From positions 1 through 55,016 of the IMG/VR virus record IMGVR_UViG_3300025671_000081: a DNA stretch of 55,016 nt, one strand, 5' to 3'. Positions 4,828 to 47,203 of the stretch are shown here, in pieces. A program made the translations under genes and the position numbers. How positions within the stretch are numbered: the first letter of the stretch is position 1; the number at the start of each line of letters is the position of its first letter. The notes beneath the pieces are model-generated. The model had not been told where the DNA came from. It made no database searches and was given only the letters and a program-made list of their open reading frames with translations. This DNA is from a virus (Duplodnaviria; Caudoviricetes).

Positions 4828-5917
4828 ATTTACTCCAGACAACCACTACGCTGGCCTGCTCGCTCAGGCTAAAGCGCTGTTTAGAATTACTCAGAGTCAG
4901 GAAGCGATCATTTCGACCCTGAGAAGCAAATTAACAGAGCTTGAATCACAGCTTGCCATGGTCGGCACGGCCGAGATTGAAGCGCAGCGCGCGGCCAATG
5001 AGCAACTGACCAATGAAGTGGAACGACTGACTGCGCATAACGCTAACCTACAGACCGCTGTAGATGCAGGGCTGCGTCAATCTTACATGCTGCGAGAATT
5101 CGCATCGAAAATCGGCATAAGTGACCGTGAAGACCCTCTTGAAACTCTGATAGGTGGCTGGACCCGGGCTGCAGAGGCCATGAGAAATTCACTCAATGAG
5201 CATAACCGAATGTGGAAAGAGGTTCTTCAGACCAGGCACGAGCACAGGCAGATGGCCGCACAAAATAAGCGTCTGATTAATTGCTTCACGACCTTAATGG
5301 GGCACAGTACGGGCGTTGCCGGGCTTCACTTAAATGGTGATGTGGCGCCATGGTCTGAGCTGACGGAAGGCGGAAGGTTTGAAGAGTGGCTTCTGCCCTT
5401 GTCAGAACCACGCGACCAGTCTATTGATGCGCTCGAAGCCCAGTGGCAAGCCGAAGCCATTCCCGGTTTTATCCGCGAAATGGGAGAGCGACTGCGCACC
5501 CAGGATAACCGTATTACTGCCGATCCTTTGTTCTGTGTGTTCCAAAAAAGAACCATTGTCGTGCCTGACGAATATGACCATGAATGTATTGAGTGGTTTT
5601 CAGGTGACGATCAGTGCACTGCTGAAGAAGAAGAAGCGGAGCGACTCGAAGAGTTACGAAGCGACATGGAAAGCGACTACTGGCATGAGGACACGATACC
5701 TCTCGATGGTAAAGAGTTTCGCCGTATCGCCGTTGCTGAGTATGACGAGTTCGTCACCGCATCATTTACCGAAGACGATGCTAACGACCATATCCGGATG
5801 AATGGCCACAACCTGAGAAAGCCATTCGTATTCGTTACCAGCCTGTACCGCACTCCGGAAATGATCGAGCTTCGCGAATGGCTGAAGGCTCAAGAAGCGG
5901 CTAAGGAACAACAATGA
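4817..5917 (+). CDS. Ead/Ea22-like modular early protein
   Basis: Coiled-coil N-terminus; C-terminal RTQDNRITADPLFCVFQKR...NGHNLRKPF..S.YR..EM..LR domain. Confidence 0.7.
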   Translation: MRAEFTPDNHYAGLLAQAKALFRITQSQEAIISTLRSKLTELESQLAMVGTAEIEAQRAANEQLTNEVERLTAHNANLQTAVDAGLRQSYMLREFASKIGISDREDPLETLIGGWTRAAEAMRNSLNEHNRMWKEVLQTRHEHRQMAAQNKRLINCFTTLMGHSTGVAGLHLNGDVAPWSELTEGGRFEEWLLPLSEPRDQSIDALEAQWQAEAIPGFIREMGERLRTQDNRITADPLFCVFQKRTIVVPDEYDHECIEWFSGDDQCTAEEEEAERLEELRSDMESDYWHEDTIPLDGKEFRRIAVAEYDEFVTASFTEDDANDHIRMNGHNLRKPFVFVTSLYRTPEMIELREWLKAQEAAKEQQ

Positions 5918-6090
5918 AGCAGCCAGAAACATTTATCGAAATGAAAGCTGAGTGCCCACACTGCGCGGCGCATATTGTGGTTTAAGCGGTAGATGAAACC
6001 GTAAACGGCCTTGAGGAAGTAGTTTGTGAAAACTGCAAAGAGCCGTTTTCTTACTGTTACCCTGGGAATATCTATGGGTTGGCGCAATAA
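5914..6090 (+). pseudogene. small zinc-ribbon gene with in-frame stop
   Basis: ATGA-coupled start; CPHC, TAA at 5983-5985, same frame continues through CENC to TAA 6088-6090 inside attC-1. Confidence 0.65.
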
Positions 6091-6141
6091 CCCAGATTTT
6101 AACGGGCGGCGAAGCCGTCCAATTTTAAATGTTTGTTATTT
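6085..6141 (-). repeat. attC-like site 1
   Basis: Minus strand TAACAAACATTTAAAA-TTGGACGGCTTCGCCGCCCG-TTAAAATCTGGGTTA. Confidence 0.88.
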
Positions 6142-6156
6142 TGATTAGGAGGCCAC

Positions 6157-6381
6157 ATGGCTCAATCACACGTGAAAGCAGGCGCGATTAAAGATTTTGT
6201 TAACTCAATGATCGCCGCGCTGGATGCTGGTTTTGTTGAGGGCAGCACACTAACACTGGCTCAGGTGCATGAAATCGCCCGGAACCACATCGAGGACACA
6301 CACGGCATAAAGACGAAGACCTTGCGTGAAGAATGGGGTGATGAGGTCGCGGAGCTGTGTGGCGCGCCTGAGTCAAAATAA
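6157..6381 (+). CDS. cassette A hypothetical protein
   Basis: AGGAGG RBS; stop codon in the R box of next site. Confidence 0.8.
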   Translation: MAQSHVKAGAIKDFVNSMIAALDAGFVEGSTLTLAQVHEIARNHIEDTHGIKTKTLREEWGDEVAELCGAPESK

Positions 6382-6432
6382 ATCAGAGCTTTGCAGCGAG
6401 CGAAGCGAGTCTGAAACAGTGAATTGTTATTT
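6376..6432 (-). repeat. attC-like site 2 (crossover triplet mutated)
   Basis: Minus strand TAACAATTCACTG..GACTCGCTTCGCTCGCTG..AGCTCTGATTTA; sister of site 9, which ends CTCTGGGTTA. Confidence 0.8.
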
Positions 6433-6446
6433 TTCTGGAGTTTGAG

Positions 6447-6653
6447 ATGGAAAGCATAATACAGATATTCAGGATGGATGATCTTAGCATTGAGACAAGA
6501 ATATCAATAATGAAAAAGCTCGGGACGGCAATCAATTATCAGTATGCTGCTAACTGTACAGAGGAACTGATAATCGAGCTTATTCTCGCACTGGCCCCTG
6601 AAAAAGAAGATGAGCTCCGTGCAGACGAGCATTACGGTCTTTACATGAAGTAA
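6447..6653 (+). CDS. cassette B hypothetical protein
   Basis: GGAG RBS; fills space between attC-2 and attC-3. Confidence 0.78.
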   Translation: MESIIQIFRMDDLSIETRISIMKKLGTAINYQYAANCTEELIIELILALAPEKEDELRADEHYGLYMK

Positions 6654-6705
6654 AAATAACCCGGCGCTTACGTGCCGAAGGTCAATTTAAAGCGCCTTGT
6701 TATTT
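6654..6705 (-). repeat. attC-like site 3
   Basis: Minus strand TAACAAGGCGCTTTAAATTGACCTTCGGCACGTAAGCGCCGGGTTA. Confidence 0.85.
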
Positions 6706-6898
6706 GGCGCGGGAGGATAAAGTAATTAAAACATACAAGATAAACCTGAAATTAGTCCGGAGTTTTTCTATCGGATTTAGTATTTTTTCGCCAACCCTTA
6801 ATAGGTTGTGCGTGGAGCTTCATTTCGGATGCTTTCACTTATGTTTTTGGAGCAAGGGAGACAAGCTTTTTGGCTTCAATAATTATTGGTGTGGCTAG
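6704..6898 (+). CDS. cassette C hypothetical protein (start codon probably lost)
   Basis: Open frame fills the cassette; GTA at 6722 sits where sister cassette D has ATG after the same GGAGGA. Confidence 0.55.
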   Translation: MAREDKVIKTYKINLKLVRSFSIGFSIFSPTLNRLCVELHFGCFHLCFWSKGDKLFGFNNYWCG

Positions 6899-6903
6899 AG
6901 ACC

Positions 6904-6957
6904 AAATAACCAAAAGCTAACGGGCGCGTAGCGTCCAATTTGAGCGCCTTGTTATTT
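6904..6957 (-). repeat. attC-like site 4
   Basis: Minus strand TAACAAGGCGCTCAAATTGGACGCTACGCGCCCGTTAGCTTTTGGTTA. Confidence 0.9.
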
Positions 6958-6973
6958 GGCGCGGGAGGAAAGA

Positions 6974-7165
6974 ATGAACCCATTTAAACGATTTTATTAC
7001 ATTGTTCGGATAGCTATCGCAATGACCAGACTAAAACGTTGGTCAGTGTCATGCAAAGACGAATTTAAGCGTGAACTATGCCGGACTTTATATCTTACGT
7101 CGTGTTTTACATACAACAGCGTTAAATACAGTTGGATGCCCAAGGCTACACCGGCGACAAAATAA
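6974..7165 (+). CDS. cassette D hypothetical protein
   Basis: GGAGGA RBS then ATG 6974; TAA stop in the R box. Confidence 0.75.
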   Translation: MNPFKRFYYIVRIAIAMTRLKRWSVSCKDEFKRELCRTLYLTSCFTYNSVKYSWMPKATPATK

Positions 7166-7214
7166 CGCCGGAATCAGGCGCGAGGCACGAGTCGCACTGA
7201 TCCGTGTGTTATTG
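7160..7214 (-). repeat. attC-like site 5 (anchor class)
   Basis: Minus strand TAACACACGGATCAGTGCGACTCGTGCCTCGCGCCTGATTCCGGCGTTA; body identical to site 10. Confidence 0.85.
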
Positions 7215-7271
7215 AATTAAACGAACTGCAGGAAGCAATAGCGCAGGCGCGTCAGGCGCTGGGAGATTGAT

Positions 7272-7478
7272 ATGGCAAAGAGTAAGCTAACGCCGCTGAA
7301 GAAGTTTGTAGAAGAGCGCTTCGGCGATACAGTACCTATGCGCACAGCGCAGCATTGGTGTCAGCACGGTCATGTTGCAGGCGCCCGTAAGATTAGGCGT
7401 CAGTGGTTTGTCGATCCTGATAAATTCGACAACACCACCGGCAACGAGCTGGCCGACAACATCCTGATGGCGTCCTAA
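7272..7478 (+). CDS. xis: excisionase (copy 1)
   Basis: 68-aa basic winged-helix-like protein (RT..HWC..G...GARKI.R.WFV) directly upstream of int. Confidence 0.85.
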   Translation: MAKSKLTPLKKFVEERFGDTVPMRTAQHWCQHGHVAGARKIRRQWFVDPDKFDNTTGNELADNILMAS

Positions 7479-7481
7479 TCC

Positions 7482-8609
7482 ATGGCACCGAGAGCACGCA
7501 AGCACAAGGGGTTGGAGCCGAATGTGTACCCGAACAAATCAGGCGGGCACACTTACTATCGCTACAAACACCCGCTCACCGGGGTGATGTACCCGCTTGG
7601 CAAGAACAAGGCGGAGGCCAATACGGCCGCCCGGATTCTGAACGCGAAGCTGCTGCAGGATGACGCCTGCATCATCGATAAAATCATGGGCACCGTCGGT
7701 ATCAGCATGGGCGCGCTTGTTGAGCGGTTCCGCGATGACCGATTGCCGGAAATGGGCCTGAAGGTCTCGACCCTAAAACTCATGGGATACCGCCTCAATC
7801 GTATTGTGTCTGACCTGGGCGACCGCGTTATCACGGAAATGACCACGAAAGACTGCGCGACCTGGCTGGATGATAACTTTGAATCAGATCCATACGTTAA
7901 ACACCGCGGTACTCTGATCGAGCTATTCCGGTATGCCGAGAACAAAGGGCTCCGTAACGGCAACGACAACCCAGCGGAAGGCACTTACCCTAACCGTAAG
8001 AAGAAGAAAAAAGCCCGCAAGCGCATGACGGTCGAGCAGTACCTTGCCATTCACGCCGCTGCGCCAGATTGGATGAAAATCGCAATGGAACTGGCCTTGA
8101 TTACACTACAGGGTCGTTCTGAGCTGATCAGAATGCGTTACGACGCTATCAAAGACGGCTACCTGTACGTTGTCCGTCAGAAAGTCGAGAGCCACGAACA
8201 CGCACGCCTCAGAATCAAAGTAACGCCAGAGATTGAGAGTATCGTTTCCCGATCCAGAGACGGTCTGGCCAGTCCCTACATCGTGCACCGTCGCCCGCAG
8301 CGGGTGAAAGAGAACAAAGACACCGATCACTGGACCCAGATTGCGCCTAATGAGTTCACCAAGCAGTTCCGGCTTATCCGCGACAGTCTGCCGGAGTTTA
8401 TCGGCATACCCAAAGAAGAACGCGGAGGTATTCACGAGGTCCGCGCATTAGGGTCGTGGCTGTATGAGCAAGCGGGATATGAGCGCGATTACGTTCAGCA
8501 TCTAATGGCTCACTCTGATGAGAAAATGACCGAATACTATCAGAGCGAGCATGAAGAAAAGTGGATCGACGTTAAAGCTGAACTCAGCCTGGCGTCAGTG
8601 TTTAAGTAA
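7482..8609 (+). CDS. int: lambda-type tyrosine integrase (copy 1)
   Basis: N-terminal arm-binding domain (YYRYKHPLTG..LG), catalytic GRSE, HEVR, AH, MTEYY. Confidence 0.95.
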   Translation: MAPRARKHKGLEPNVYPNKSGGHTYYRYKHPLTGVMYPLGKNKAEANTAARILNAKLLQDDACIIDKIMGTVGISMGALVERFRDDRLPEMGLKVSTLKLMGYRLNRIVSDLGDRVITEMTTKDCATWLDDNFESDPYVKHRGTLIELFRYAENKGLRNGNDNPAEGTYPNRKKKKKARKRMTVEQYLAIHAAAPDWMKIAMELALITLQGRSELIRMRYDAIKDGYLYVVRQKVESHEHARLRIKVTPEIESIVSRSRDGLASPYIVHRRPQRVKENKDTDHWTQIAPNEFTKQFRLIRDSLPEFIGIPKEERGGIHEVRALGSWLYEQAGYERDYVQHLMAHSDEKMTEYYQSEHEEKWIDVKAELSLASVFK

Positions 8610-8667
8610 CCCTAGTTTTAATGGGCGCGAGTAGTACGAGCGTCCACCATTTAAATGTTTGTTATTG
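8604..8667 (-). repeat. attC-like site 6
   Basis: Minus strand TAACAAACATTTAAATGGTGGACGCTCG..CGCGCCCATTAAAACTAGGGTTA; overlaps int stop codon. Confidence 0.85.
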
Positions 8668-8700
8668 CTCTATGAGCAGAAAATAACGGAGATACACGTC

Positions 8701-8853
8701 ATGAAGTGGCTAAGAGAACGAAAAAAAAGACAGCAAGAGCAGCTTGAATTGCTAAGAAGGATTGCTAAAAGTTTAAACGAAATAGAACAAAGTATTGATC
8801 GCAATAGCCGATATGGAAATGCCATTAAGGTAGTGCGGGCATCGAGATATTAG
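8701..8853 (+). CDS. cassette F small basic protein
   Basis: GGAG RBS, ATG 8701, 50 aa. Confidence 0.7.
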   Translation: MKWLRERKKRQQEQLELLRRIAKSLNEIEQSIDRNSRYGNAIKVVRASRY

Positions 8854-8858
8854 AGTAG

Positions 8859-8907
8859 CAATAACCACGCTATTCAGCGGTTTATCCGCTGCAATGCTTT
8901 GTTATGT
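8859..8907 (-). repeat. attC-like site 7 (very short)
   Basis: Minus strand TAACAAAGCATTGCAGCGGATAAACCGCTGAATAGCGTGGTTA; one extra base in left L arm. Confidence 0.82.
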
Positions 8908-8929
8908 GTGAATTACGGGAGATATTGTT

Positions 8930-9169
8930 ATGAGCCATCACGGGCATGGTTATAGAGTTTACCCTGATGATATGTCAGAACATACTCATGAAGAGTGGTC
9001 AAAAGCTGATAGCTGGATAAACGGTCTAGAGTTTAGAAAGGACTTTAATGAGGCTTTAGCTTTGGCAAAACTTGGAGCCGTTAATTGCCAATTTCCTTTC
9101 ATTGTAATGGAGATACCAATTGGCGGCAAAAGACAGAGATTTTGTGATTGCTGGGTGATAGAACCCTAA
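8930..9169 (+). CDS. cassette G hypothetical protein
   Basis: GGGAGA RBS; fills cassette. Confidence 0.78.
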   Translation: MSHHGHGYRVYPDDMSEHTHEEWSKADSWINGLEFRKDFNEALALAKLGAVNCQFPFIVMEIPIGGKRQRFCDCWVIEP

Positions 9170-9173
9170 TGAC

Positions 9174-9231
9174 ACATAACCCGGCGTTTAACTGTGAACG
9201 CCAGTGAATCATTTATAACGCTTTGTTATTC
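9174..9231 (-). repeat. attC-like site 8
   Basis: Near identical to sites 11 and 13 (+ strand TAACCCGGCGTTTAACTGTGAACGCCAGTGAATCATTTA.AACGC.TTGTTA). Confidence 0.9.
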
Positions 9232-9247
9232 GTTGGAGTTGAGTTAA

Positions 9248-9751
9248 ATGAGTGGATTGTTTGGAGAGCCAGTAGAGCGATCGCCGCACAAAAGCGTTGA
9301 GTGGTACACGCCGTCGTGGGTATTCGATGCTCTTGCAATCGACTTTGATCTGGATCCGTCTTCTCCACACGATATGGAAACGGCGGTACCAGCAAAGAAG
9401 AAGTTCACCATCTTTGATGATGGTCTTAAACAGGAGTGGTTCGGACGAGTGTGGCTGAATCCTCCTTATGGAAAAGATACACCGTTCTGGATCCGCAGAA
9501 TGATCGAACACGGTAATGGTATTGCACTGGTATTCAGCCGCACTGATGCGGCTTGGTGTCAGGAAGCAATGGCGGCATGTACTGCAATGCTTTTTGTTAG
9601 TGGACGGATCCAGTTCACACCAGGCAAAGAGAATCAGCACAAAAAGAGCCGTTGCGGTGCTGGTACCGTGCTCTTTGCTTTCGGAAAAGAGAGCGCCTGT
9701 GCGTTGAAGCGTATGAGCGATCGCGGAGTTTATTTAGAACGGAACGAATAA
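9248..9751 (+). CDS. cassette H phage DNA N6-adenine methyltransferase (Dam-type)
   Basis: EWYTP, FDLDP, DGLKQEW, VWLNPPY, FSRTD..W, GRIQF motifs. Confidence 0.9.
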   Translation: MSGLFGEPVERSPHKSVEWYTPSWVFDALAIDFDLDPSSPHDMETAVPAKKKFTIFDDGLKQEWFGRVWLNPPYGKDTPFWIRRMIEHGNGIALVFSRTDAAWCQEAMAACTAMLFVSGRIQFTPGKENQHKKSRCGAGTVLFAFGKESACALKRMSDRGVYLERNE

Positions 9752-9807
9752 CCCAGAGCTTTGCTGTGCGAGTGCAGCGAGCGTCTGTCAAAAGTGAATT
9801 GTTATTC
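9746..9807 (-). repeat. attC-like site 9
   Basis: Minus strand TAACAATTCACTTTTGACAGACGCTCGCTGCACTCGCACAGCAAAGCTCTGGGTTA. Confidence 0.85.
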
Positions 9808-9815
9808 TTACAGAG

Positions 9816-10016
9816 GTGATTATGAGCAGAGAGATGCTAACGAATCGTTTGGAAAAAATTGCCGGTAGTAACGTGATTATGTCAAACGACAAAGAGAAAG
9901 CGGCGCTGTGTAAGTGTGTCAACTATCTGGCCACGCAGCTACAGATTCTTGCGAATGACTTGGATGAAAGTCCTGCAAATGTTTTTAAGCTGGCGTCCGA
10001 GATACTGGAAGAATAA
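9816..10016 (+). CDS. cassette I hypothetical protein
   Basis: GAGGTG RBS (start may be ATG 9822); stop in R box. Confidence 0.75.
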   Translation: MIMSREMLTNRLEKIAGSNVIMSNDKEKAALCKCVNYLATQLQILANDLDESPANVFKLASEILEE

Positions 10017-10065
10017 CGCCGGAATCAGGCGCGAGGCACGAGTCGCACTGATCCGTGTGTTATTG
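10011..10065 (-). repeat. attC-like site 10 (anchor class)
   Basis: Body identical to site 5. Confidence 0.85.
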
Positions 10066-10122
10066 AATTAAACGAACTGCAGGAAGCAATACAGCAAGCG
10101 CGTCAGGCGCTGGGAGATTGAT

Positions 10123-10329
10123 ATGGCAAAGAAGAAGTTAACGCCGTTGAAGAAATTCGTAAAAGACAAGTTCGGCGACGACGTACCTATGCGAACCGCG
10201 CAACACTGGTGCCAGAATGGGCACTTGGCTGGAGCCCGAAAAGTAGGCCGGAAATGGTTTGTCGATGCAGAGCAGTTCGATAAAACTACCGGCAATGAAC
10301 TGGCCGACAGCATCCTGATGGCGTCTTAA
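10123..10329 (+). CDS. xis: excisionase (copy 2)
   Basis: 15 of 68 residues differ from copy 1 (hand count). Confidence 0.85.
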   Translation: MAKKKLTPLKKFVKDKFGDDVPMRTAQHWCQNGHLAGARKVGRKWFVDAEQFDKTTGNELADSILMAS

Positions 10330-10332
10330 TTC

Positions 10333-11460
10333 ATGGCACCAAGAGCGCGCAAGCATACAGGTCTGGAAGCGAATGTGTACCCGAACAAGTCCGGCGGGCA
10401 CACTTACTATCGCTACAAACACCCCCTTACCGGGGTGATGCACCCGCTTGGCAAGAACAAAGCCGAGGCCAACACGGCAGCCAGAATTCTGAACGCGAAG
10501 CTTTTGCAGGATGATGCGTGCGTTGTCGATAGAATCATGGGCACTGTTGGTATCAGCATGGCCGCTCTGGTTGAGCGGTTCCGCGACGACCGATTGCCGG
10601 AAATGAACCTCAAGCCGTCCACCCTCAAGCTAATGGGTTACCGACTGAATCGCATTGTGACCGACCTGGGCGACCGCGTTATCACGGAAATGACCACGAA
10701 AGACTGTGCGACCTGGCTGGATGATAACTTTGAATCAGATCCATACGTTAAGCACCGCGGCACTCTGATCGAGCTATTCCGGTATGCCGAGAACAAAGGG
10801 CTCCGTAACGGCAACGACAACCCAGCGGAAGGCACCTACCCTAACCGGAAGAAGAAGAAGAAAGCCCGTAAGCGCATGACGGTCGAGCAGTACCTTGCCA
10901 TTCACGCCGCTGCGCCAGATTGGATGAAAATCGCAATGGAACTGGCCTTGATTACACTACAGGGTCGTTCTGAGCTGATCAGAATGCGTTACGACGCTAT
11001 CAAAGACGGCTACCTGTACGTTGTCCGTCAGAAAGTCGAGAGCCACGAACACGCACGCCTCAGAATCAAAGTAACGCCAGAGATTGAGAGTATCGTTTCC
11101 CGATCCAGAGACGGTCTGGCCAGTCCCTACATCGTGCACCGTCGCCCGCAGCGGGTGAAAGAGAACAAAGACACCGATCACTGGACCCAGATTGCGCCTA
11201 ATGAGTTCACCAAGCAGTTTCGGCTTATCCGCGACAGACTGCCGGAGTTTATCGGCATACCCAAAGAGGAACGCGGCGGTATCCACGAAGTCCGTGCACT
11301 AGGGTCGTGGCTGTATGAGCAAGCGGGATATGAGCGTGATTACGTTCAGCACCTGATGGCTCACTCTGATGAGAAGATGACCGAATACTATCAGAGCGAG
11401 CATGAAGAAAAGTGGATCGACGTTAAAGCTGAACTCAGCCTGGCGTCGGTGTTTAAGTAA
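10333..11460 (+). CDS. int: lambda-type tyrosine integrase (copy 2)
   Basis: 11 of 375 residues differ from copy 1 (hand count); catalytic residues intact. Confidence 0.95.
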   Translation: MAPRARKHTGLEANVYPNKSGGHTYYRYKHPLTGVMHPLGKNKAEANTAARILNAKLLQDDACVVDRIMGTVGISMAALVERFRDDRLPEMNLKPSTLKLMGYRLNRIVTDLGDRVITEMTTKDCATWLDDNFESDPYVKHRGTLIELFRYAENKGLRNGNDNPAEGTYPNRKKKKKARKRMTVEQYLAIHAAAPDWMKIAMELALITLQGRSELIRMRYDAIKDGYLYVVRQKVESHEHARLRIKVTPEIESIVSRSRDGLASPYIVHRRPQRVKENKDTDHWTQIAPNEFTKQFRLIRDRLPEFIGIPKEERGGIHEVRALGSWLYEQAGYERDYVQHLMAHSDEKMTEYYQSEHEEKWIDVKAELSLASVFK

Positions 11461-11512
11461 CCCGGCGTTTAACTGTGAACGCCAGTGAATCATTTAGAAC
11501 GCATTGTTATGC
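11455..11512 (-). repeat. attC-like site 11
   Basis: Minus strand TAAC-AATGC-GTT(C)TAA...TTAAAC-GCCGG-GTTA, with the canonical extra C in L''. Confidence 0.9.
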
Positions 11513-11529
11513 GTTGGGAGGATACCGAA

Positions 11530-11853
11530 GTGACAGACCAAGAAAAAATAGTTTCAGCAATCAAGCATATACCTACGGATGAGATAGCTGCGCTGCCGTA
11601 CTTCAAGAACCGTGGGAAGAATTTCATAGCCCGTGGATTGGCGAATGATAAGACCGGGGAGCGTGAGCGCGCATTCAGTGACGTCATAAAGGAATTTCAC
11701 GAGGACGGCAACAGTCTCTGCCTTATTGTCGGTGAAGATGAAGCCGAATTGCGCGGGGCTTTTACCTTGTTTCAGTGGCTAACAACAAATGTCGGAAGCG
11801 TCGTTCTTGATAGGGCGTTACGGTCTACAGGAAAGAAGGTTGTTGACGCATAA
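11530..11853 (+). CDS. cassette J hypothetical protein
   Basis: GGGAGGA RBS then GTG 11530; stop in R box. Confidence 0.78.
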   Translation: MTDQEKIVSAIKHIPTDEIAALPYFKNRGKNFIARGLANDKTGERERAFSDVIKEFHEDGNSLCLIVGEDEAELRGAFTLFQWLTTNVGSVVLDRALRSTGKKVVDA

Positions 11854-11898
11854 CGCCGGAATCACGGGCCGCAGGTCCCGTGAAACCGTGTGTTATTG
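11848..11898 (-). repeat. attC-like site 12 (anchor class)
   Basis: Minus strand TAACACACGGTTTCACGGGACCTGCGGCCCGTGATTCCGGCGTTA. Confidence 0.85.
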
Positions 11899-11918
11899 AT
11901 GCTTTGGCGACTACTGTA

Positions 11919-12193
11919 TATTGCCAATGTATTGCCAATTATTTGCCAATGCAAACAGCAGGCACAAAAAAGACGCTTATAAGCGCCTGATTTGTAAGGG
12001 ATTTTTGGTAGGACTACCCAGATTCGAACTGGGGACCTCTACCATGTCAAGGTAGCCTTCCAAATCCGCTAAGCGTCTGTTTTATAAGGGATTTACCCCT
12101 TAAAACCGTGCGCAATGAGCGCAATAAACGCGAACCGCGCAACCTTTTAAAATCAATGACTTAGGTTTTGCGCAACCACTGGATATTGCCAAT
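11919..12193. other. attP region: arm-type repeats (TA)TTGCCAAT at 11919, 11930, 11942 and 12184; IHF-consensus site 12151-12163
   Basis: Repeats flank the tRNA-derived core; AATCAATGACTTA matches WATCAANNNNTTR. Confidence 0.8.
12006..12055 (-). other. attP core = 3' part of tRNA-Val(GAC), not a full tRNA
   Basis: Minus strand CTACC-TTGACAT-GGTAG anticodon arm, CCCAG-TTCGAAT-CTGGG T arm, ending CCTACCA; D arm and 5' acceptor strand absent. Confidence 0.9.
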
Positions 12194-12200
12194 AGGAATT

Positions 12201-12764
12201 ATGATGCCCAGACGAAAACAAAAACCAAAAACCCGCAAGAAGCCCATGCGCAGAACGGCACGTCAAGTGCAACGTCATGAAGCGTCGCGGCTCATAAAAG
12301 ACCTGGTCGCCGTGTACGTCTTCACCGGTAGCGGCTCAAAGCCTCGAGTATTCAACCGCACAACGTTCATAGAGGTTCCGGTTACCGATGAAATTGACTC
12401 CGCCCTAAAGAGTCACCCGTACCGATGGCGTATCAGCACTGCCCTTCTGCTTCGCGAAAAGAATGGCAAGCGGAAACTTATTAGTGAAGAGGTGTCTGCT
12501 CGCGATAAAAATGGAATCGCTCGAATCGAGTACGGAAACCTAGCGCCACAGGTTGTCGATAGTCACGTCGACCTCGTCTCAAGCTACTCCAACCAAGACT
12601 TAATAGTAACAGTGGGCTGGGTTGCTGATCCAAGCGGCAAAGAGCTCTCGCCAGAAGATGAAATGCGTCTCTATGAAGCAGCGAAGGCTTATGAAAACTT
12701 CATCGCTGCTTGGGAACTTCCTGCTGCTGAGGCTGCCGGCCAGTTAGTGGAAAAGGTAGCGTGA
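12201..12764 (+). CDS. hypothetical phage protein
   Basis: AGGA RBS before ATG 12201; long ORF. Confidence 0.7.
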   Translation: MMPRRKQKPKTRKKPMRRTARQVQRHEASRLIKDLVAVYVFTGSGSKPRVFNRTTFIEVPVTDEIDSALKSHPYRWRISTALLLREKNGKRKLISEEVSARDKNGIARIEYGNLAPQVVDSHVDLVSSYSNQDLIVTVGWVADPSGKELSPEDEMRLYEAAKAYENFIAAWELPAAEAAGQLVEKVA

Positions 12765-12796
12765 CGAATCCTGAAGAGGATGAAAAGCACAGGTAC

Positions 12797-12854
12797 ACAT
12801 AACCCGGCGTTTAACTGTGAACGCCAGTGAATCATTTATAACGCATTGTTATGC
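12797..12854 (-). repeat. attC-like site 13
   Basis: Near identical to sites 8 and 11. Confidence 0.9.
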
Positions 12855-12871
12855 GTTGGGAGGATATTTAA

Positions 12872-13075
12872 GTGACAGATGAAAATTCATTCGTGATTCG
12901 TCTTTTACACGAGAAAAACGAGTTGCATTGCAGAATGACACTACTAAATCGTTTCAATCATTCTGATAAATTTTTAGAGCTGAGCGAAGAAGAGCAAGTG
13001 CTACTACTGGAACAACACAGAGCAATGCAGAAATATTACGGGATACTCAACAAGCGCTGCGCCCTGTACGCATAA
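12872..13075 (+). CDS. cassette K small helical phage protein (crAss001_48-like)
   Basis: RL..EK.EL..R...L..F...DKF..L..EEQ.LL..Q..AM..Y..IL..R pattern. Confidence 0.75.
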   Translation: MTDENSFVIRLLHEKNELHCRMTLLNRFNHSDKFLELSEEEQVLLLEQHRAMQKYYGILNKRCALYA

Positions 13076-13127
13076 CGCCGGAGTCGCGCGTCGAGGTACG
13101 AGATCGCCGCGCACCCGTGTGTTATTT
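13070..13127 (-). repeat. attC-like site 14 (anchor class)
   Basis: Minus strand TAACACACGGGTGCGCGGCGATCTCGTACCTCGACGCGCGACTCCGGCGTTA. Confidence 0.82.
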
Positions 13128-13415
13128 CGGTATGACCATAACCTCTATATCCGGAGCTGCAACCCGGGCACGCTCAGGGAACCGACCTTCTTCAGGTTCG
13201 CATATCAGAACAATGGCCGGCATCCGCCCTGTCGATCGAGCGTAGTAAAGAGCCTGGCCTACAGCCTCCGCCCATTTATGGCACCAGTCGAACTCAACCG
13301 CGTGAGTAGGTGTGAGGCAGTCGACCCGGGTACGGTCTTCGAGCACGTATTCGGTTTTACCGCCCATATGTGGGCAATACGCGCCAACGTAGTCAGCTTC
13401 CATTGGTCTCGTCAT
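13122..13415 (-). CDS. small PD-(D/E)XK-like fold protein
   Basis: RVDCLT..HAVEFD..KWAEAVGQALYY motif; stop codon inside R'' of site 14. Confidence 0.65.
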   Translation of the reverse strand: MTRPMEADYVGAYCPHMGGKTEYVLEDRTRVDCLTPTHAVEFDWCHKWAEAVGQALYYARSTGRMPAIVLICEPEEGRFPERARVAAPDIEVMVIPK

Positions 13416-13712: not shown

Positions 13713-14159
13713 ATGCATGGTGTGGCCGGTCTGGGCAGTCGACTTCGAGAAGCGCGCAGGGAGGCGGGGCTATCAGCTGATTGGATGGTGCGCTTTCTTA
13801 ATGGGTACTTAGTATCAGCAGGTATGAAGCCCGTAGGCATACAGACCTATTACAGCTGGGAGCGAATAGGCACTCCCAGAGAAAGACCGGGGAAGTCCTA
13901 CCCTCACCCGCTGATTTATAAGCTGGTGCTGATCCCGCTGGGTGTGACTGGATACTGGCTGTTCAATGGGGATATGGGCGGCAAGATAGTAAAGTACAGA
14001 AAGGATCTTCCTCAGCTTGAGAAGATCAATTACGGCATCGAACAGAAATCAGGAGTAACGCTGCCTGATCGCTTGAGGATGGAATTTAATAGGGTTGAGC
14101 CGCTAATGAACAACGGCCAGCGTAGAGGGTTATTGGAAATGCTAAGGGCAACCAGATGA
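13713..14159 (+). CDS. XRE-like HTH DNA-binding protein
   Basis: LGSRLREARREAGLS..., YSWE.IG, LGVT.YWLFNG; GAGG RBS. Confidence 0.7.
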   Translation: MHGVAGLGSRLREARREAGLSADWMVRFLNGYLVSAGMKPVGIQTYYSWERIGTPRERPGKSYPHPLIYKLVLIPLGVTGYWLFNGDMGGKIVKYRKDLPQLEKINYGIEQKSGVTLPDRLRMEFNRVEPLMNNGQRRGLLEMLRATR

Positions 14160-14398
14160 TAGGCAGCTGGACATACGAAGAGGCGGCAACGCTGATACTG
14201 ACATGCTATGCACTCAGCTTCGTCATCGTAATTATGTCTGACAGTGTACCAACCAAGTGGCGAACGTGGACCACGGTGCACTGTGTTGCGCTGGCGGTAC
14301 CCATCGCAACACTGGCCACCTCAATTCTGGTGGCGATACCCGGCCTTATGATTCTTGGCCTGGTAATCGCAGCCACGTCCCGGGTTAAGCGTCGATAG
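14156..14398 (+). CDS. small membrane protein
   Basis: 2-3 hydrophobic helices; coupled to HTH gene. Confidence 0.6.
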   Translation: MIGSWTYEEAATLILTCYALSFVIVIMSDSVPTKWRTWTTVHCVALAVPIATLATSILVAIPGLMILGLVIAATSRVKRR

Positions 14399-17300
14399 CT
14401 TTCAGCTTCGGCGATACACGCTCAATCAAGTGATTCCTGCGCAGCTTCAGCAAGTCGATCTGACGTCGCTTTTCTTCTGCGCTGAGACTTCCGTTTTTCT
14501 CAATGGCCTTAATCCGGTTGCGGATCTCCTGTAGCCGTCGGTTCACCTGATTCATTAACTTGCGCATACCAAGCAGGTCGCGGTTTTCCCTCAAGGTGTC
14601 GGCGTACTCTTCCATGTCGCCCTCTTCTCTGTACTTCCTCATATCCGCATAGAGGCGGTCAGCCTTACGCAGTGAGTCATAGAAAAGCTCTGCGTCTTTT
14701 GTGTAAGACGGCCGAGAAGCATCACGATAGAAGCGTTTGATCGGCTGATACTCTGTCAGGAAAACAGACGGTTTTTCTGTATCGCTGAACTGACGAACAG
14801 CTACATCAGGAATGGCCGACGCCCATGCGCCAACCTGTCCGAGGTAGCCACCGATTAAGAAGTCCATCTGAACCGGTGACAGCGCGTAGTTTGAATCTTC
14901 GCCGAACACGCCCGTGGTCACCTTGCTCAGCATCTTGGCGACGCCGGTTGTGCCCTCATTGACCCGATTACTTTTGCTCAGTCGGGACTGCCCCATGGTT
15001 TCAATCTGACGCCCGGTGAACGAGTCCTTGTTCGCGTAGACATCCAGCGAAGGCTGAAACATCTGAGGCACAGCACTGAATGCAAACGTACCTGTCAGCA
15101 TGTGCCACATACGCTCACGGAACAGTTTGCCGGTAGCCTCGTCGTTCATGCCTTGCTCAAGTAATCGCTCAGTTACCGTTGCGATGGCGCCAACCTCAAA
15201 CGGTTTAGGGATGGTAATGACGTGATCCGTTTCCGGAATACGGAACCACCAGTAGGAATCCTTCAGCCAGTCTGGGGCTTTACGGTATTCCTCATCGTCC
15301 TGGTTATGTGCGAACAGAGTCATAGTGGCAACCGAAAGCGCGCCAACCACAGCAGAGAATCTGGCTGCCGCCTTTTTCTCTTCAATGCTGGTTTCGACAT
15401 TACCAACCCCAAGCATCTGCGCCACTACCTTCGTCGATGGCTTCACGCCAGAGCGATACAGCTTATCCAGGCCCTGCAAGCGAGCATTCAGGAATGGTAC
15501 AACGTCGATCAGAAAGCGAACCGCAGGCCACGCGCCATGCGCAGAGAAGTCCATCAGGTCGCGAGCCTGAAACGCTGCGTACATGGTCCCCTTTCCCGCA
15601 TCCTCAGCCTGCTTGAATGCAGCCGCACGATTCACGTTCTCAAGGCTGTTATTCACATCCATCCATCTATCCCAGCCAGCCTGTAAAGGCTTCAGCCCCA
15701 GAGACAGAAGCTGTTTAGGGTCCTTGATAACCTTTGCCCGGCGCATCTGGCCATCGATCTGATACCGGATAGAGTCAGCATCCTCGCCATAAACGTGACC
15801 GAAGCTGAACGCACCGCCAGACGCCATCAGCCGCGCTCGTTCATATCCGTGACGATCAAGCAGACCGAACGATTTGAGACCCTGCGCAATGTTGCTGGCC
15901 GCGTTCTTGCTCATGTCGGTAACCGCCACTGCACTCATAGAGTCCCGCAGAAGGTTGGCGACAACGAACTGAGGCGTACTGGTGGTCAGGTTGGTGAAAG
16001 TTCTTTTAAACCAGCGCATAGCCGACATGGCATAGCCGTTCATGCCGGTGTGGTTCAGACTGGTCAGCGACGAATAGACCATAGGGTCAGAAATGTCGTA
16101 CCACTCTTTCACGCCATTACGCAGTATGAAGGTGCTTTGCTTTTTGTCCCGAGCTGCCTCGACAGTTTTCTCTGCCGCGCCTAACTCCACCGCGTTATCA
16201 ATGCCCTGCTTCGCTGCCATGTTCTTCATGCTGGCATCAACCAGGTGGTGTAAGTTCATCAATGTGTTTTGCAGGAGGTCATTCAGGTTCTGAGTGCCAC
16301 CCTTCAGCTTCTTATAAGCCTGCTGGCGAGAAAGCCCGCCCATAACCCTTGGGCCTGTAGTGTCGTCGTTGTCTTCGTCCAGTCGGTAAAAGGGAACGTA
16401 AAACTCGTTCGCCCACATTTCCCGGTTTTCGCTGGTGATAATTCCTGACTCTTCAGCAATCGCCAGAACGTCGTCCCGGTACTGCTGGAACTCTTTGAAC
16501 ACCTTTTCATACAGAACGTTACGGTTACCGCCGTTTTTCAATTCGCCGCGGTTAAGCCCTTTCAGCGCCTGAATGTCTTCCGGAGTGAACAGATTTTCAC
16601 GACCTTCGGCCATCAGCTTTTCGCCGCGGTTACCGGCGATCCACCCCATGAAGCGCTCAATCTCAGCGGACGAGCCCAGTTTATTCAGGGTATAAATCAG
16701 GCCGTTAGTGTCTTTCTTCACATCGACGATACCGTCTTTGTTCATAAAGATACGGCCTGCGTTCATCATCGCAGACACAGCACCAGAGGCGGCATTGCTC
16801 ATTTTGGCGCGAGCCCAGGCAGAACGAGTGATGTTTTCTTCACTGGTGATATTGCCGTCAAGCAACTTCTTATCCAGCTCCATCAATCCAGCATAGCGAT
16901 CAACCAGACCCTGACGGACCTTTAAGCGCCAGCCGTCCATAACGCCGCGCACTTTTTCGGCGGCAGTTTCTACCGGGCCTTTCGGCCCGATTTTAGAGAG
17001 GGCTGATTTCTCGGCATCGTTAAGGCTGGAGTCTTCCGCAAGGTCGTCGGATAAGCGGGCGAGAGTTCCACCATCCTGACCAGACGAACCATTCTCACGA
17101 AGGTGACGACGCCCTTTTTCAATCAGCGCCAGAGTGTCTGTATCCGTCCAGTCGATATCAGGATTGAATTTGCGGATCAGGTCGCGCAGGGCAGCAATAG
17201 CACGCTGTACCAGCCCCATCTTTTTACCTTTCTCGGCAAGGTGGGCAATGTACTCCAGAACAGCAATACGACGCTCATCTGGGTTGTCATAGTCAAATGC

Positions 17301-20300
17301 GTAGCGATCAATGTCTTTATTGATAACGCTATGGCCAGCCCGATAATAAATATCGTCCAGCATTTCCAGATAGGCTTTACCACCCAGCTTTTCGTTCTGC
17401 TTCAGGTAGTTGATAACGCCTCCATGGCCGACTACCTCATGCAGGAATACACGCTTGGCGTGATATTGGTCCCGGATGTTTCCAGCGACGATGTAGGTTT
17501 TTCCGGTCTTGATATCGTAGGCACCGTCGGCGCTGTCGAAGTATGCACCAAGGTCAATCTTGACGCGCCCGGGCAGATCCAGACTTGTCTCCACCACTTC
17601 AACGGAATCCATGCCTTCAGCCATATTCTCAAGCCATCCACGCACCTGCTTGGCGGTGCTTCGGGTTTGTACTCGGGATTTTCCGCTGAACTGGCTGGCG
17701 AGTGAGCGGATCTCTGCGCTCACGTCGTCGGAGAGGGATGCAAGGATGGTCTTGTCACCATCCTTTCTCGCCTCAATCGTCTCAAATATTTCATCAAAGG
17801 CTTTCTCTACAGGAAGAAGTTCTGACTCTCTGAGATACGGATACCTCTCTGCGTCTCTCGCAAACTCAGACTCTGGTGTCACATTCGCCAGAAAATCGTT
17901 CCTGTTTCCCTTTTTAGCAAGAGAGGCAATTACGTAGTTCTCAAAGGAGCGAGCGGCCAGCTCAATAATCTGTGACCAATACGCATTAGGCTTGCTATCA
18001 ATCTTCAAAGACCGCTGTCTTACGGGTGAAGAATTTAGAACGCTTGCCAGATCAGCAAACTTCTTCTCCACTTCCGGCCTCACCCCCTCGGGATGGCTCT
18101 TATCTCTTTCCCATTCTGAATCAGCAAAATCCCCATTATTCCCATAATTTTTCTGGTATCGCTCTAATTCAAACTTAGTTAGCCTTGCGCCTCTGATTTT
18201 CTTATTGACCATCATCGGCTCAGGTCTGAAAGTAATATAATTACCCTGTCCTTTGGCGGGCTCCTGCCCCCTTTTTCTCCAAAAGTAGTTATCGAGAGCA
18301 TGGAACCACTCATGGGCCAGCGAACCTGAACCCTGAGTTTTTGTCAGGTTGATCACCATCGACCAGGGCTCGTAATGAGCAGCGGCACGCCCGCCCCTAC
18401 CTCTTGAGCCAAACCCGATACCAAGCTGTCCACCCAGCCCTATAGCCTCTGGCGGGATATTCAGAGTGTCCGCAAGATCCATAAACGCATCATACGCGGC
18501 GTTGATAAGCCCTTGTCGCTCCCTTCCTCCCTTTCCTTGCTTGACCCAATTACCAAACTCAGCCCCTCGGATTGAGAACCTTTCGATAAACTCTTGAGGT
18601 GATACGTCCTTTCCTGATCTCCAATCTTCACCGACACGGGCCTTATTTTTTGAGCCTCGTGTATCTGCCTTTGATACGTTGTCCCGCGCCTTTACTGATT
18701 CCCATGCATTTACCAAATCATCATATCCGTCAATGATGTATGACCTAGCCTCGCCCAGGGTGTCGAACGTCTTGAGTGCGCGGCGTTCGCGATCACCTTT
18801 CTTGTTGATATAGAACTTCTTCCCGCCACCGGATGATCGTACTTCAAACTTCATCGACCGTTCTTTAGTCGCGGGCTCCCCAAGATACTCAGATACAGGG
18901 GCAGTAAGGTCAGAAACTGACTCCATGCCGTAGAAAGCCTTTCGTTTACCATCGATTTCTACGTCATACCAGCTTCCAGGAATCATCTCACCGCTTTCGT
19001 CACGATACTTCCCGCTCGCTCTTGATACCCTTTTTATTCTGTCCCACTGCTTCCTATCGACGGCAGACAAAAGCTCCACCTTGTCCGCAAGATTTCTCAG
19101 GGCACCTCCCTTTTCGCGCATCACCGAAATAAGTGATTCAGCCCCTTCGCCGGAAGCAAGCTCTAACAACTCACGAACAGACTTGACTGAATCGACCCAG
19201 CGCTTGAGGCGACCCCTTACCCGTGGCTTGTTCGGTATCTCATCTCGAACCACCTTGTACAGTGCTGCCTGCTTAACGTCTTCAATTTTGTTAATTTCCC
19301 CTTTCGGGAACAACTGAGAGAGCGTTGAATCCGCTATACCCTGATCATCCAAATCGGAAAGTCTTTCGGTCGCAGTGCGAAGCTCATCTTTTCTTGCGCC
19401 ACCCAACTTCTCACCAACATCATCGATGTCAGAATCAGGGGTGGAAAGGGCAGAATCAACCTCCACATCAGGCCCAAAGTCATCATTCACCTCAGTAGCG
19501 CTTGCCCGTGGCGCATCAGCAATGTCAGAGTTCCCAGCCTCCGCTGCGCCCTCTGGTACCGGATGAAGCTCGAAACCACCTTCTACTTCTACCAGCTCGT
19601 AACCTGGGTGCTTCTTCAGGGCTTTACGGGCTGCGCCTTTGTTCTTGTAAGGGTTCCCAGCGCTGTTGCGGATGATGGGCTTATCGTCTTTCTCTGGAGC
19701 TGCCTGTTCAGCCTGATCTGGCTCGCCATACTCTTCACGCAAAGAAGCCCATGCCTGACGGTTCACGCCTTCTGGCGAATCGCTGTTCAGCTCATTGAAC
19801 TGCTCAAATGACAGTGCCGACTGCGCTCGATCTACGTCAGTCTCATATTGATCTTCAATGCGCTGCATTGCGGATTCGTAGCCAGGCGAAGAAGGCTTCA
19901 GCCCTTCAGCTCTGGCCATCTTTTTCAGATAAGCCTTGCGAGTGGCTGTAAGAATTTCAGGAAGGTCAGGGGCTGGTTTTTGTGCGGGCTTTGATTTTTG
20001 TTTGCTTTCCTTTTTCGGACCCTCAGAACGAGAAACCCCGGCAGGTGCCGGGGTTTTTTCTGGTTCATTACCTTGGGAGCTTTCTGGATTATCTGGGGAG
20101 TTATTTCGCGCCTCTTGAAGCAAATCACTCTGTCCAGCCGCTGCAGCCTGATCTGCCTCAGTATCTGACCCCGCCAAGGCAAACGAATCCACCTCTGCGT
20201 CTGCCTTTGCTTTCTGCTGAGATTTCCGTTCAGTTTCTGAATTTACCTTCTCGGCCTGCTGGCGCTCTTCTTCCTTCTGGCGAAGGTCTTCTTCCGTGTA

Positions 20301-29684: not shown

Positions 29685-30612
29685 AACGGCCCCAAGTGAA
29701 GGTCAAATCAATTTCTAGGTTGTAGTTGGCAGGCAAGGTAAAGCCTGGATCAATCTCCATTCGCGGAACCTTCCTTGAGCTGGAATTATTAGAAGCCGAA
29801 TAAGAGACCTGTAATTTCTCCGGAGTCTGATCGTTCTCGATATAGTCGAATGAAGCTCTCACCGTTACCTGTCTAGAAGCTCCGTCAAATGAGTACGGAG
29901 TGCCAACAGAGCTACTACCGGAGCGAGAATAGCCCCCGCCAATCAGGTAATAGCTACTACCGTCGTATGATGAACTGCCAAACATAGGCTGAGCGAACCC
30001 AAACGCATGTATACCCTCTGCAGTGGTGTTATTGGAATCTGCAGCATAAACCGTGTAGCTCAGGTCGCCGTGTGGGGTGGATACCGTGCCAGAACCCAAA
30101 ATCTCATCAGGAATTATCGAATAGAGCGTGTAGGTAACCCGAACTGTTTGATTATCTGTGACAGTTATTGTGATCGGATTTCCACTACCATCCTTTATCA
30201 GGGATCGACTCATCAGCGTCCCGGTAGATCCGCCTTTCCTTATGCCAAGCTCTGACAGATCGCCAGATATATTCGTAAACTCAACTTCTCTGGCACACTT
30301 ATAGATGGCTGGGTAAGCCCCCTCTGCACTGTCTCTGGTGAAATTAGTGAAGTCACCACTGGCCTTGCTTGCTATCTGATTACCGAGATCGGTGTCGCTG
30401 TAAGCCGGAGTGGTAACTACTCCGGCACCCAAGCACAAGTGCAAATAAAAAACGCCGGAGAATCCATTAACCTGCTGCCGAAATGGGCCCGGATCTTCAA
30501 GGGCTGCATCGGTAATCAGGTTATCGAACTCGCCCGAGTCAAATACAATGCCCTCATCTTCAAGGACTTGTACTCTATAACTGCCTCTCATCAGCGTTGG
30601 CTTTAGCTTCAT
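29668..30612 (-). CDS. putative tail fibre/appendage protein
   Basis: FDNLITD, ELGI..LMSRSLIKDGSGNPITITV..VTY; paralog of 31177-32010. Confidence 0.6.
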   Translation of the reverse strand: MKLKPTLMRGSYRVQVLEDEGIVFDSGEFDNLITDAALEDPGPFRQQVNGFSGVFYLHLCLGAGVVTTPAYSDTDLGNQIASKASGDFTNFTRDSAEGAYPAIYKCAREVEFTNISGDLSELGIRKGGSTGTLMSRSLIKDGSGNPITITVTDNQTVRVTYTLYSIIPDEILGSGTVSTPHGDLSYTVYAADSNNTTAEGIHAFGFAQPMFGSSSYDGSSYYLIGGGYSRSGSSSVGTPYSFDGASRQVTVRASFDYIENDQTPEKLQVSYSASNNSSSRKVPRMEIDPGFTLPANYNLEIDLTFTWGRYDSGA

Positions 30613-47154: not shown

Positions 47155-47203
47155 TAATAACACACGCCAGCACGAGACAAAGCTCGTGTGTGCGGCGTTA
47201 TTG
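47155..47203 (+). repeat. solitary attC-like site 15 (anchor class)
   Basis: AATAACACACGCCAGCACGAGACAAAGCTCGTGTGTGCGGCGTTATT; GTTA overlaps stop of minus-strand ORF. Confidence 0.72.

Follow-up and report, generated by a model that had tools for sequence, protein, structure and literature searches.

We analysed a 55,016-bp stretch of viral DNA (Caudoviricetes), hereafter called the window, which is the complete, linear IMG/VR virus record IMGVR_UViG_3300025671_000081 (CheckV completeness estimate 100%), and focused on two of its genes, J and K, which encode unrelated proteins of 107 and 67 aa behind a near-identical block of upstream DNA. We found that both genes lie in an array of 14 hairpin sites of the form ATAAC...GTTAT, which extends from 6087 to 13125 and is accompanied by one solo site at about 47.2 kb. 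J and K are probably two integron-type cassettes of one attC family in this array, which forms a cluster of attC sites lacking integron integrases (CALIN) in the early and lysogeny region of a phage. The units between the elements contain small open reading frames (ORFs), a Dam-type methyltransferase gene (H), two copies of xis together with a lambda-type int, and the attP region, and the ORFs led by a ribosome-binding site (RBS) between sites are all on the plus strand. Elements begin at or in the stop codon of the preceding plus-strand ORF and finish a few bases before the next Shine-Dalgarno sequence. Thirteen of the 14 array sites were obtained from a simple scan for TAAC...GTTAT; the other, E2 (6378), was recognised by eye, its core being degraded to ATAAA, and the cores are present in 14 of the 15 elements when the solo site is counted.

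Shared blocks, complementary ends and likeness to attC sites

The initial annotation had described J and K as unrelated genes behind a near-identical attC and leader, with H carrying the same attC and a related leader, and our analysis bore out each part of this description. The 80-nt block upstream of J (11458-11537) recurs upstream of K at 95% identity (12800-12879) and upstream of H at 76% identity (9177-9256). A 38-nt core of the element is present in three copies with zero mismatches, at 9178, 11459 and 12801 (0 expected), and the leader TTATGCGTTGGGAGGATA in exactly two, at 11507 and 12849 (0.03 expected by chance). Over the 80 nt, J and K differ by one base and one 4-nt patch; the shared block extends through GTGACAGA, which encodes the first three codons, and similarity then breaks off abruptly, the two genes being unrelated from codon 4. 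No homology between the two proteins was found (no BLASTP alignment at E ≤ 100). K belongs to PF21825 (crAss001_48-related) and phrog_774, while J has no match to a Pfam, NCBIfam or PHROG family, and none of its six homologs (105-114 aa) has a precomputed Pfam domain or a source-given name. Both ORFs also terminate in ACGCATAAC, as had been proposed; a second repeat family is found at the ORF ends (ACGCATAACGCCGGA..., at 11846 and 13068), and after both ORFs comes another kind of element, ATAACGCCGGA...CCGTGTGTTAT.

A property that had gone unrecorded is that the start of the leader, (G)TTATGCGT, and the terminus, ACGCATAA(C), are mutual reverse complements. In the array, the four bases that follow GTTAT are complementary to those preceding ATAAC in the next element, not to the flank of the same element. 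The pair TTATGCGT ... ACGCATAA of J and K, which comprises the 'leader' and 'terminus' of the initial annotation, corresponds to TTATTCGT ... ACGAATAA in H, a compensatory change from GCGT...ACGC in J and K to TCGT...ACGA in H. When unique end pairs from the window and four other arrays were counted, 14 of 22 unique cassettes had own-end complementarity of at least 4 nt, a figure that fell to 3 of 22 when the flanks of a single element were compared with each other, and none of 100,000 permutations reached 14 (maximum 7). The count of 14 is slightly conservative, as one true complementary pair at the last element of metagenome contig L084 scored as 2. Complementary cassette ends are a classical signature of integron cassettes. 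The same own-end rule is followed by integron arrays of the host family, by which we mean the family of the metagenome-assembled genome (MAG) that carries a sister prophage of this phage, and many R boxes in those arrays are of the ATAAC/GTTAT kind. Leader start and terminus are two halves of one 9-bp R box, and their pairing shows that a circular cassette would bear this R box fully paired, to be split upon insertion. The simpler reading of the shared frame, or 'chassis', is that most of it is a single attC site whose parts flank the cargo, having been split by cassette insertion; near-identical attC sites on unrelated cargo are a textbook property of chromosomal integron arrays, as stated in the text of PMC9892861.

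To compare the elements with integron attC sites, we built a covariance model (R1) from the 22 shortest hairpins (of the TAACA...CGTTA kind) of 10 host-family genomes, the hairpins having been collected in the 12 kb adjoining the integron integrase gene (intI) in 15 such genomes, with zero phage sequence. An unfiltered search of the whole window on both strands returned elements as its top 11 matches and matched 12 of the 15 elements, with one non-element match above the weakest element. The alignments (four printed) cover the full model, including its spacer and bulge positions. All 11 matches within the array are on the minus strand, and the same orientation rule holds in the sister prophage L013 and in five further loci (L010, L082, L084, L085 and L086); two of the sites in these loci score 31-33 bits (E about 1e-6). 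In four genomes, six host sites adjoining intI have the form ATAACGCC...TTTGTTAT on the strand that runs against the array direction, which agrees with the window's plus strand being the putative attC bottom strand and its minus strand the top strand. When 14 elements were folded (E10, identical to E5, was left out), eight formed a single imperfect hairpin closed by ATAAC/GTTAT, the minimum-energy folds had z-scores of -0.6 to -3.4, and the element centres varied in sequence with pairing maintained. Because of the copy numbers of leader and core, the R1 search and the end-pair permutations, chance is excluded as the source of the pattern. Since the R1 scores are modest next to those of host sites, the phage sites would represent a short, divergent attC subclass. 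The cargo is reversed relative to the attC top strand, and each attC therefore stands upstream of its own gene, abutting the RBS. The opposite arrangement, with an attC downstream of each ORF and the plus strand as top strand, was rejected by the R1 orientation and the breakpoint pattern.

Cassette mobility, the probable enzyme and rival explanations

We found that cassettes occur in more than one context. Cassette H (window 9171 to about 9754) is present in L084 with two mismatches and with both flanks unrelated, and the element that follows it there is of another type. The E5 body with xis-int occurs in three instances with three different upstream flanks, and the end of int is then followed by three different bodies; the E12 body with the attP arm occurs in two instances, an identical body and arm being present in L013 at 10657-10863; and the E3-type body with its leader occurs in three instances. 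Element bodies thus retain their downstream partner and change their upstream neighbour, which places the crossover between ATAA and C on the plus strand (between G and TTAT on the minus strand), matching the R1 orientation. Alternative orders were obtained by comparing contigs of other public runs with positions 6000-13200, evidence being taken only from the parts that these contigs cover. At the cores, such contigs join 6086 to 6906 with 6 shared letters; 9745 to 10011 (run X20), so that exactly one 265-nt cassette is absent and the junction falls in a shared GAATAAC (7 shared letters); 9746 to 6655, giving H followed by the E3 body, with 8 shared letters; and 8611 to 6905 (int followed by the E4 body). 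The end of J is joined to an E3-type body in run X19. Altogether, four of the 11 listed joints are at short ATAAC-type cores, and three of these share only 6-8 letters, which is far too few for a graph mis-join.

With 14 sites within 7 kb and no integron integrase, the array is a CALIN by definition and not a complete integron, which comprises intI, an adjacent attI and an array. The only tyrosine recombinases (PF00589) in the window are the two copies of a lambda-type Int with an arm-binding domain. The window has no match to the Y1 (HUH) transposase family PF01797, with which hairpin elements of the REP/RAYT or IS200/IS605 type are associated. A host integron integrase (IntI) supplied in trans would most likely be the acting enzyme: IntI exceeded its curated threshold in 55 of the 86 host-family genomes. 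Such an enzyme would fold the window's plus strand, as the attC bottom strand, and cut between AA and C, and circles running from C to ATAA would be excised and re-inserted among phages and prophages. IntI is often SOS-controlled, and under such control cassette shuffling and prophage induction could occur together. As for the identity that J and K share past the R box, comprising the RBS and three codons, it may have been inherited with an attC-proximal part of common origin, the cargo having been exchanged by recombination within the cassette.

Several observations weigh against this reading. With regard to the sites, R1 misses E2, E6 and E9, and the matched window sites score low, at 11.9-19.5 bits with individual E values of 0.007-1; held-out host sites score far above them at 26-42 bits, as do the host MAG's own 15 sites at 29.5-56 bits. 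The sites are short, at about 45-60 nt, and their fifth core base, T, misfits the textbook GTTRRRY (consensus quoted in PMC9892861). Host cassettes are co-oriented with the attC top strand in 12 of 14 cases, whereas all cargo ORFs of the phage oppose it, and neither the xis-int unit nor the attP unit has end complementarity. With regard to the enzyme, the whole record contains no match to the integron integrase model TIGR02249 (E ≤ 0.01), and five related viral records contain no match to TIGR02249 (E ≤ 0.001) or PF00589. In the host MAG (G001), which has at least 15 attC sites on six contigs, the intI gene adjoins canonical attC sites and is internally deleted (L016 1372-1917, contig C31; 181 aa covering model positions 1-131 and 273-314). 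A search with K in the 86 host-family genomes returned one weak match only (E 5.6e-4, 36% identity), and exchange with host integrons was not found with this query. With regard to the junctions, five shared bases upstream of H are not accounted for by a simple one-crossover model, the alternative orders were seen in assembled contigs and not in reads, and some breakpoints lie directly after GTTAT or within bodies (10037 to 13098), where homologous recombination is the better fit. The five bases are GACAC (9171-9175), which are identical in the otherwise unrelated contexts of the window and L084; the cassettes that precede H in these two contexts both start with GTGT and have different ORFs and attC bodies.

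These last junctions bear on a different explanation, by which the elements are regulatory or structural intergenic hairpins (acting in mRNA processing, stability, termination or translation initiation), the genes between them are shuffled by RecT/YqaJ homologous recombination of the phage, and the likeness to attC is superficial or ancestral. The genes for a RecT-like annealing protein and a YqaJ-type exonuclease are situated just upstream of the array, and L010 has both as well; the bodies and leaders are repeats of 40-80 nt, long enough for such systems; on the transcribed strand, every element comes after a stop codon and ahead of the following RBS; and joints inside bodies or leaders were seen (11521 to 13085 and 6965 to 11849, in addition to the one given above). 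On the other hand, homologous recombination creates no complementarity between cassette ends, the joints at short cores offer it just 6-8 shared letters in three cases, and an integron-derived model finds the elements in one orientation. Signals expected of regulatory hairpins were also sparse: promoter-like sites are not enriched (4 compared to 10.0 ± 3.7 in shuffles), four of 16 terminator-like sites are on the plus strand (three of these four at elements), and the elements match no Rfam family. We regard this explanation as rather improbable.

It is also conceivable, and in our judgement highly improbable, that the sites are substrates of a phage-encoded recombinase, foremost the duplicated lambda-type Int/Xis, and not of a host IntI. 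The xis-int module is placed within the array, is bounded by elements and is present in two copies, and neither the phage nor the sole identified host MAG has an intact intI. This Int, however, has a lambda arm-binding domain and an ordinary attP on a tRNA-Val fragment, and the sites resemble IntI substrates. Furthermore, the record G087, which represents a complete phage (38.7 kb, terminal repeats), has six R1 matches with no PF00589 or TIGR02249 match.

The proposed fixed frame, cassette genesis and known systems

The initial annotation had further proposed that new ORFs are built into a fixed frame of attC and RBS. We found this proposal to be partly supported. Reuse of the frame with unrelated cargo stood up: in the window, L010, L080 and L082 taken together, the type A/A' element bears six ORFs with no relationship to one another. 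The sequences do not demonstrate that new ORFs are built, and recombination explains the pattern equally well. A degenerate type A core was found at two viral and six metagenome loci; the exact 36-nt type A core gave no match in viral contigs, and a megablast search of positions 5900-13200 against 50,697 phage records gave none either. Other end pairs recur with different cargo as well (TGCT/AGCA, TTGG/CCAA, GTGT/ACAC and GCGC/GCGC). What identity is left beyond the R box comprises the RBS, the variable 4-nt patch and three codons.

One may read this remainder more strongly, as part of a fixed scaffold of attC, RBS and first codons that receives new ORF cores, so that cassette genesis is caught in action. 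Although this would be compatible with the integron-type explanation that we prefer, we think it unlikely. The abrupt change at codon 4 in J and K after 80 near-identical nt fits it, as does the varied cargo of type A/A' sites (six unrelated ORFs). Among close homologs of K, which are 77-99% identical, the core is constant but the ends vary, with at least six different N-termini and several C-terminal tails. The homologs of J diverge right after ...KKVV, where J has an R-box-encoded D-A-stop, and the PHROG profiles that K matches are longer than K, its alignment being confined to their C-terminal parts. Non-cassette homologs, which the initial annotation had suggested as a way of mapping the junctions, were sought in viral contigs and found for K only: J gave 0 loci, and K gave one distant relative, in L087, which lies inside a longer reading frame (by direct reading, not called by a tool) with no attC match. 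Against the scaffold stand the absence of any intermediate or mechanism among the sequences, the occurrence of M-T-D/K starts and L-Y-A ends as native features of the J and K families, such that part of the shared sequence may be coincidence or microhomology used in recombination, and the fact that leader swapping by recombination accounts for the variable termini just as well. Frame and cargo meet within the first and last codons, which fits cargo replacement in a kept frame and equally well short-homology recombination by RecT/YqaJ; where short flanks are shared, RecT and YqaJ could exchange the cargo between them. The origin of cassettes is an unsettled question (Ghaly 2021, PMC8352920), and we consider the connection with cassette genesis to be a reasonable lead and not an established result. 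Junctions in the first and last codons would provide a concrete data set for models of cassette formation.

CALINs are rare in bacteriophage genomes but have been published before (Qi et al. 2023, Front Microbiol, PMC9892861), with 17 CALINs and attC sites usable by IntI1. The array described here is similar in that small ORFs of a phage alternate with attC-type hairpins, IntI is absent and the host is of a marine type, and a DNA methyltransferase (H) is among its cargo, as methyltransferase cassettes are in that study. It differs from the CALINs of about 2-4 sites in the figures of PMC9892861 by its 14 sites plus a solo site, by having all cargo against the attC top strand and by carrying xis-int (twice) and attP inside the array; its sites are also short and divergent and score low with the host-family model. 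The full set of 17 may include arrays that are larger than those in the figures or similar to this one. A phage-borne CALIN is thus of a known kind, and the size, the reversed cargo and the presence of xis-int and attP inside the array are the newer points.

The sedentary chromosomal integrons of the host family resemble the array in their ATAAC/GTTAT-kind R boxes, their own-end complementarity, their attC sites of 49-60 nt and their inner motifs (CGAG-N3-5-CGAG and GGGCG...CGTCC), which have the same orientation relative to the core. The host arrays, unlike that of the phage, adjoin intI and hold mostly co-oriented ORFs, as counted above; their R-box complementarity spans 7 bp compared to 9 bp in the phage, and their R1 scores are 26-56 bits compared to 12-20 bits. 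T4-type promoter early stem-loop (PeSL) cassettes and lambdoid 'boundary sequences' have been proposed to act by homologous recombination and carry promoters. As in those systems, small accessory ORFs here stand between short conserved intergenic elements, the region is hyperplastic, and modules are shuffled between relatives; the array differs from them in having no promoter signal, complementary unit ends, core junctions of 5-8 nt and a match to an attC model.

Integrons have mostly been studied as gene-capture devices of bacteria. If a host integron integrase drives the array, phages would be borrowing integron machinery from the host and, by means of it, trading accessory genes and even the module for their own integration; if no host integrase is involved, the array remains a clear example of genes being shuffled as modules in phages, and its junctions are exact. 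We tentatively suggest, while considering it doubtful, that these phages run an integron-like platform of their own. In such a platform, the attC bottom-strand hairpin and an RBS would precede reversed cargo, which would be expressed from early transcription and be antisense and silent in a host integron; SOS-induced host IntI would shuffle early accessory genes and even the xis-int-attP module among co-resident phages, and ORF cores would be swapped into a small number of recurring frames of attC and RBS, the junctions falling in the first and last codons. If this were true, cassette genesis would be directly observable.

Features of the array and of the phage that carries it

The phage has a sister prophage, L013, which has the same backbone and an Int that is 97% identical; this prophage is situated inside the MAG, titled 'Oceanospirillaceae bacterium'. 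Its integration site is tRNA-Val(GAC), a tRNA-Val having been found at its junction by ARAGORN, and in the window ARAGORN called no tRNA. Because L013 is integrated at tRNA-Val and the window contains a matching tRNA fragment, the window is a temperate phage in excised form. Close relatives have backbone segments that are 80-97% identical and an integrase that is 97% identical, yet their cassette content differs one by one. A protein search with Int found only two relatives in genome contigs and one in viral contigs. Two loci with a 39% identical Int (L014 and L015) have no array, with at most two regular-expression (regex) matches each and no convincing R1 match. The coordinates of the array's features are given in Table 1.

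Table 1. Sites, cassettes and other features of the array, with positions in the window
Feature	Positions	Strand	Description
E1	6087-6139	-	attC-type site
E2	6378-6430	-	attC-type site, core ATAAA
E3	6656-6703	-	attC-type site
E4	6906-6955	-	attC-type site
E5	7162-7212	-	attC-type site, type B
E6	8606-8665	-	attC-type site
E7	8861-8905	-	attC-type site
E8	9176-9229	-	type A site of cassette H
E9	9748-9805	-	site, followed by an ORF of 64-66 aa; E9-E10 stretch 9748-10063
E10	10013-10063	-	identical to E5
E11	11457-11510	-	type A, assigned to cassette J; R1 17.0 bits; fold -12.3 kcal/mol, z -3.3
E12	11850-11896	-	type B, linked to the attP arm downstream; R1 13.3 bits
E13	12799-12852	-	type A, 95% identical to the E11 block; R1 19.2 bits
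E14	13072-13125	-	type B, right end of the array; R1 11.9 bits
Solo site	47155-47203	+	late region; R1 14.4 bits; top strand opposite to local ORFs
Unit 1, xis-int	7166-8609	+	E5 body, xis 7272-7478, lambda-type int 7482-8609
Cassette H	9176-9751	+	type A site E8 and Dam-type N6-adenine methyltransferase ORF 9248-9751; end ACGAATAA, complementing its own TTATTCGT start
Unit 2, xis-int	10017-11460	+	E10 body, xis 10123-10329, int 10333-11460 (PF09003 arm-binding and PF00589)
Cassette J	11461-11853	+	attC body, R-box half TTATGCGT, Shine-Dalgarno GGGAGGA, GTG-start ORF 11530-11853 (107 aa), end ACGCATAA
tRNA 3' fragment	12003-12060	-	likely attP core; weak Rfam tRNA match 12009-12068; BLAST similarity to L013 stops at 12056
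ORF of 189-198 aa	12195-12764	+	phrog_5434; between attP and E13
Cassette K	12803-13075	+	attC body, TTATGCGT leader, ORF 12872-13075 (67 aa, PF21825), end ACGCATAA

The solo site stands between minus-strand genes, and a similar solo site is present in L010 (102-159), a locus with an unrelated backbone. The body of E14 has an identical copy in three other viral contigs. E14 is also a convergent junction, with the stop codons of K (plus strand) and of an ORF at 13122-13415 (minus strand) in its two core arms, and the latter ORF has the canonical cassette orientation relative to E14. Hairpin apices are often mini-stems with a G-N-A triloop (GCGAAGC, CCGAAGG, GCGTAGC or CCGCAGG; seen among E1-E4, E12 and the L013 sites at 7242 and 7437), and other elements have the direct repeat CGAG-N3-5-CGAG, which is present in host-family attC sites too. 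Two more plus-strand regex matches (14056-14133 and 30468-30524) had no R1 support and were judged to be due to chance.

Within the J and K leaders, an ATG in the R box opens a mini-ORF (11509-11532 and 12851-12874). In K it encodes MRWEDI-stop and ends right before the GTG of K, and in J the 4-nt difference abolishes its stop, such that the frame continues into J; the annotation of one database homolog (114 aa) starts at that ATG. The two xis-int modules (7272-8609 and 10123-11460) are about 90% alike (83% in their xis parts), each is preceded by an identical attC body, and they are 89.7% and 94.1% identical to the L013 copy; they are not recent duplicates, and the second module probably came from another phage lineage. 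The unit after E3 (6660-6909) has the usual leader and RBS with only a 64-codon TTG frame and no convincing ORF, and it may be a decayed cassette; the E3 body and leader bear a different ORF in L013 and in L080. Outside the array, the left end of the window, which holds the RecT-like and YqaJ-type genes, also has a gene for a CsrA homolog in the early operon (2442-2636; PF02599, E 1.8e-24). The right two thirds of the window consist of minus-strand genes, among them one at 14385-23102 that encodes a large polyvalent protein of 2905 aa with LPD38, LPD5 and LPD1 domains and an HExxH-like motif.

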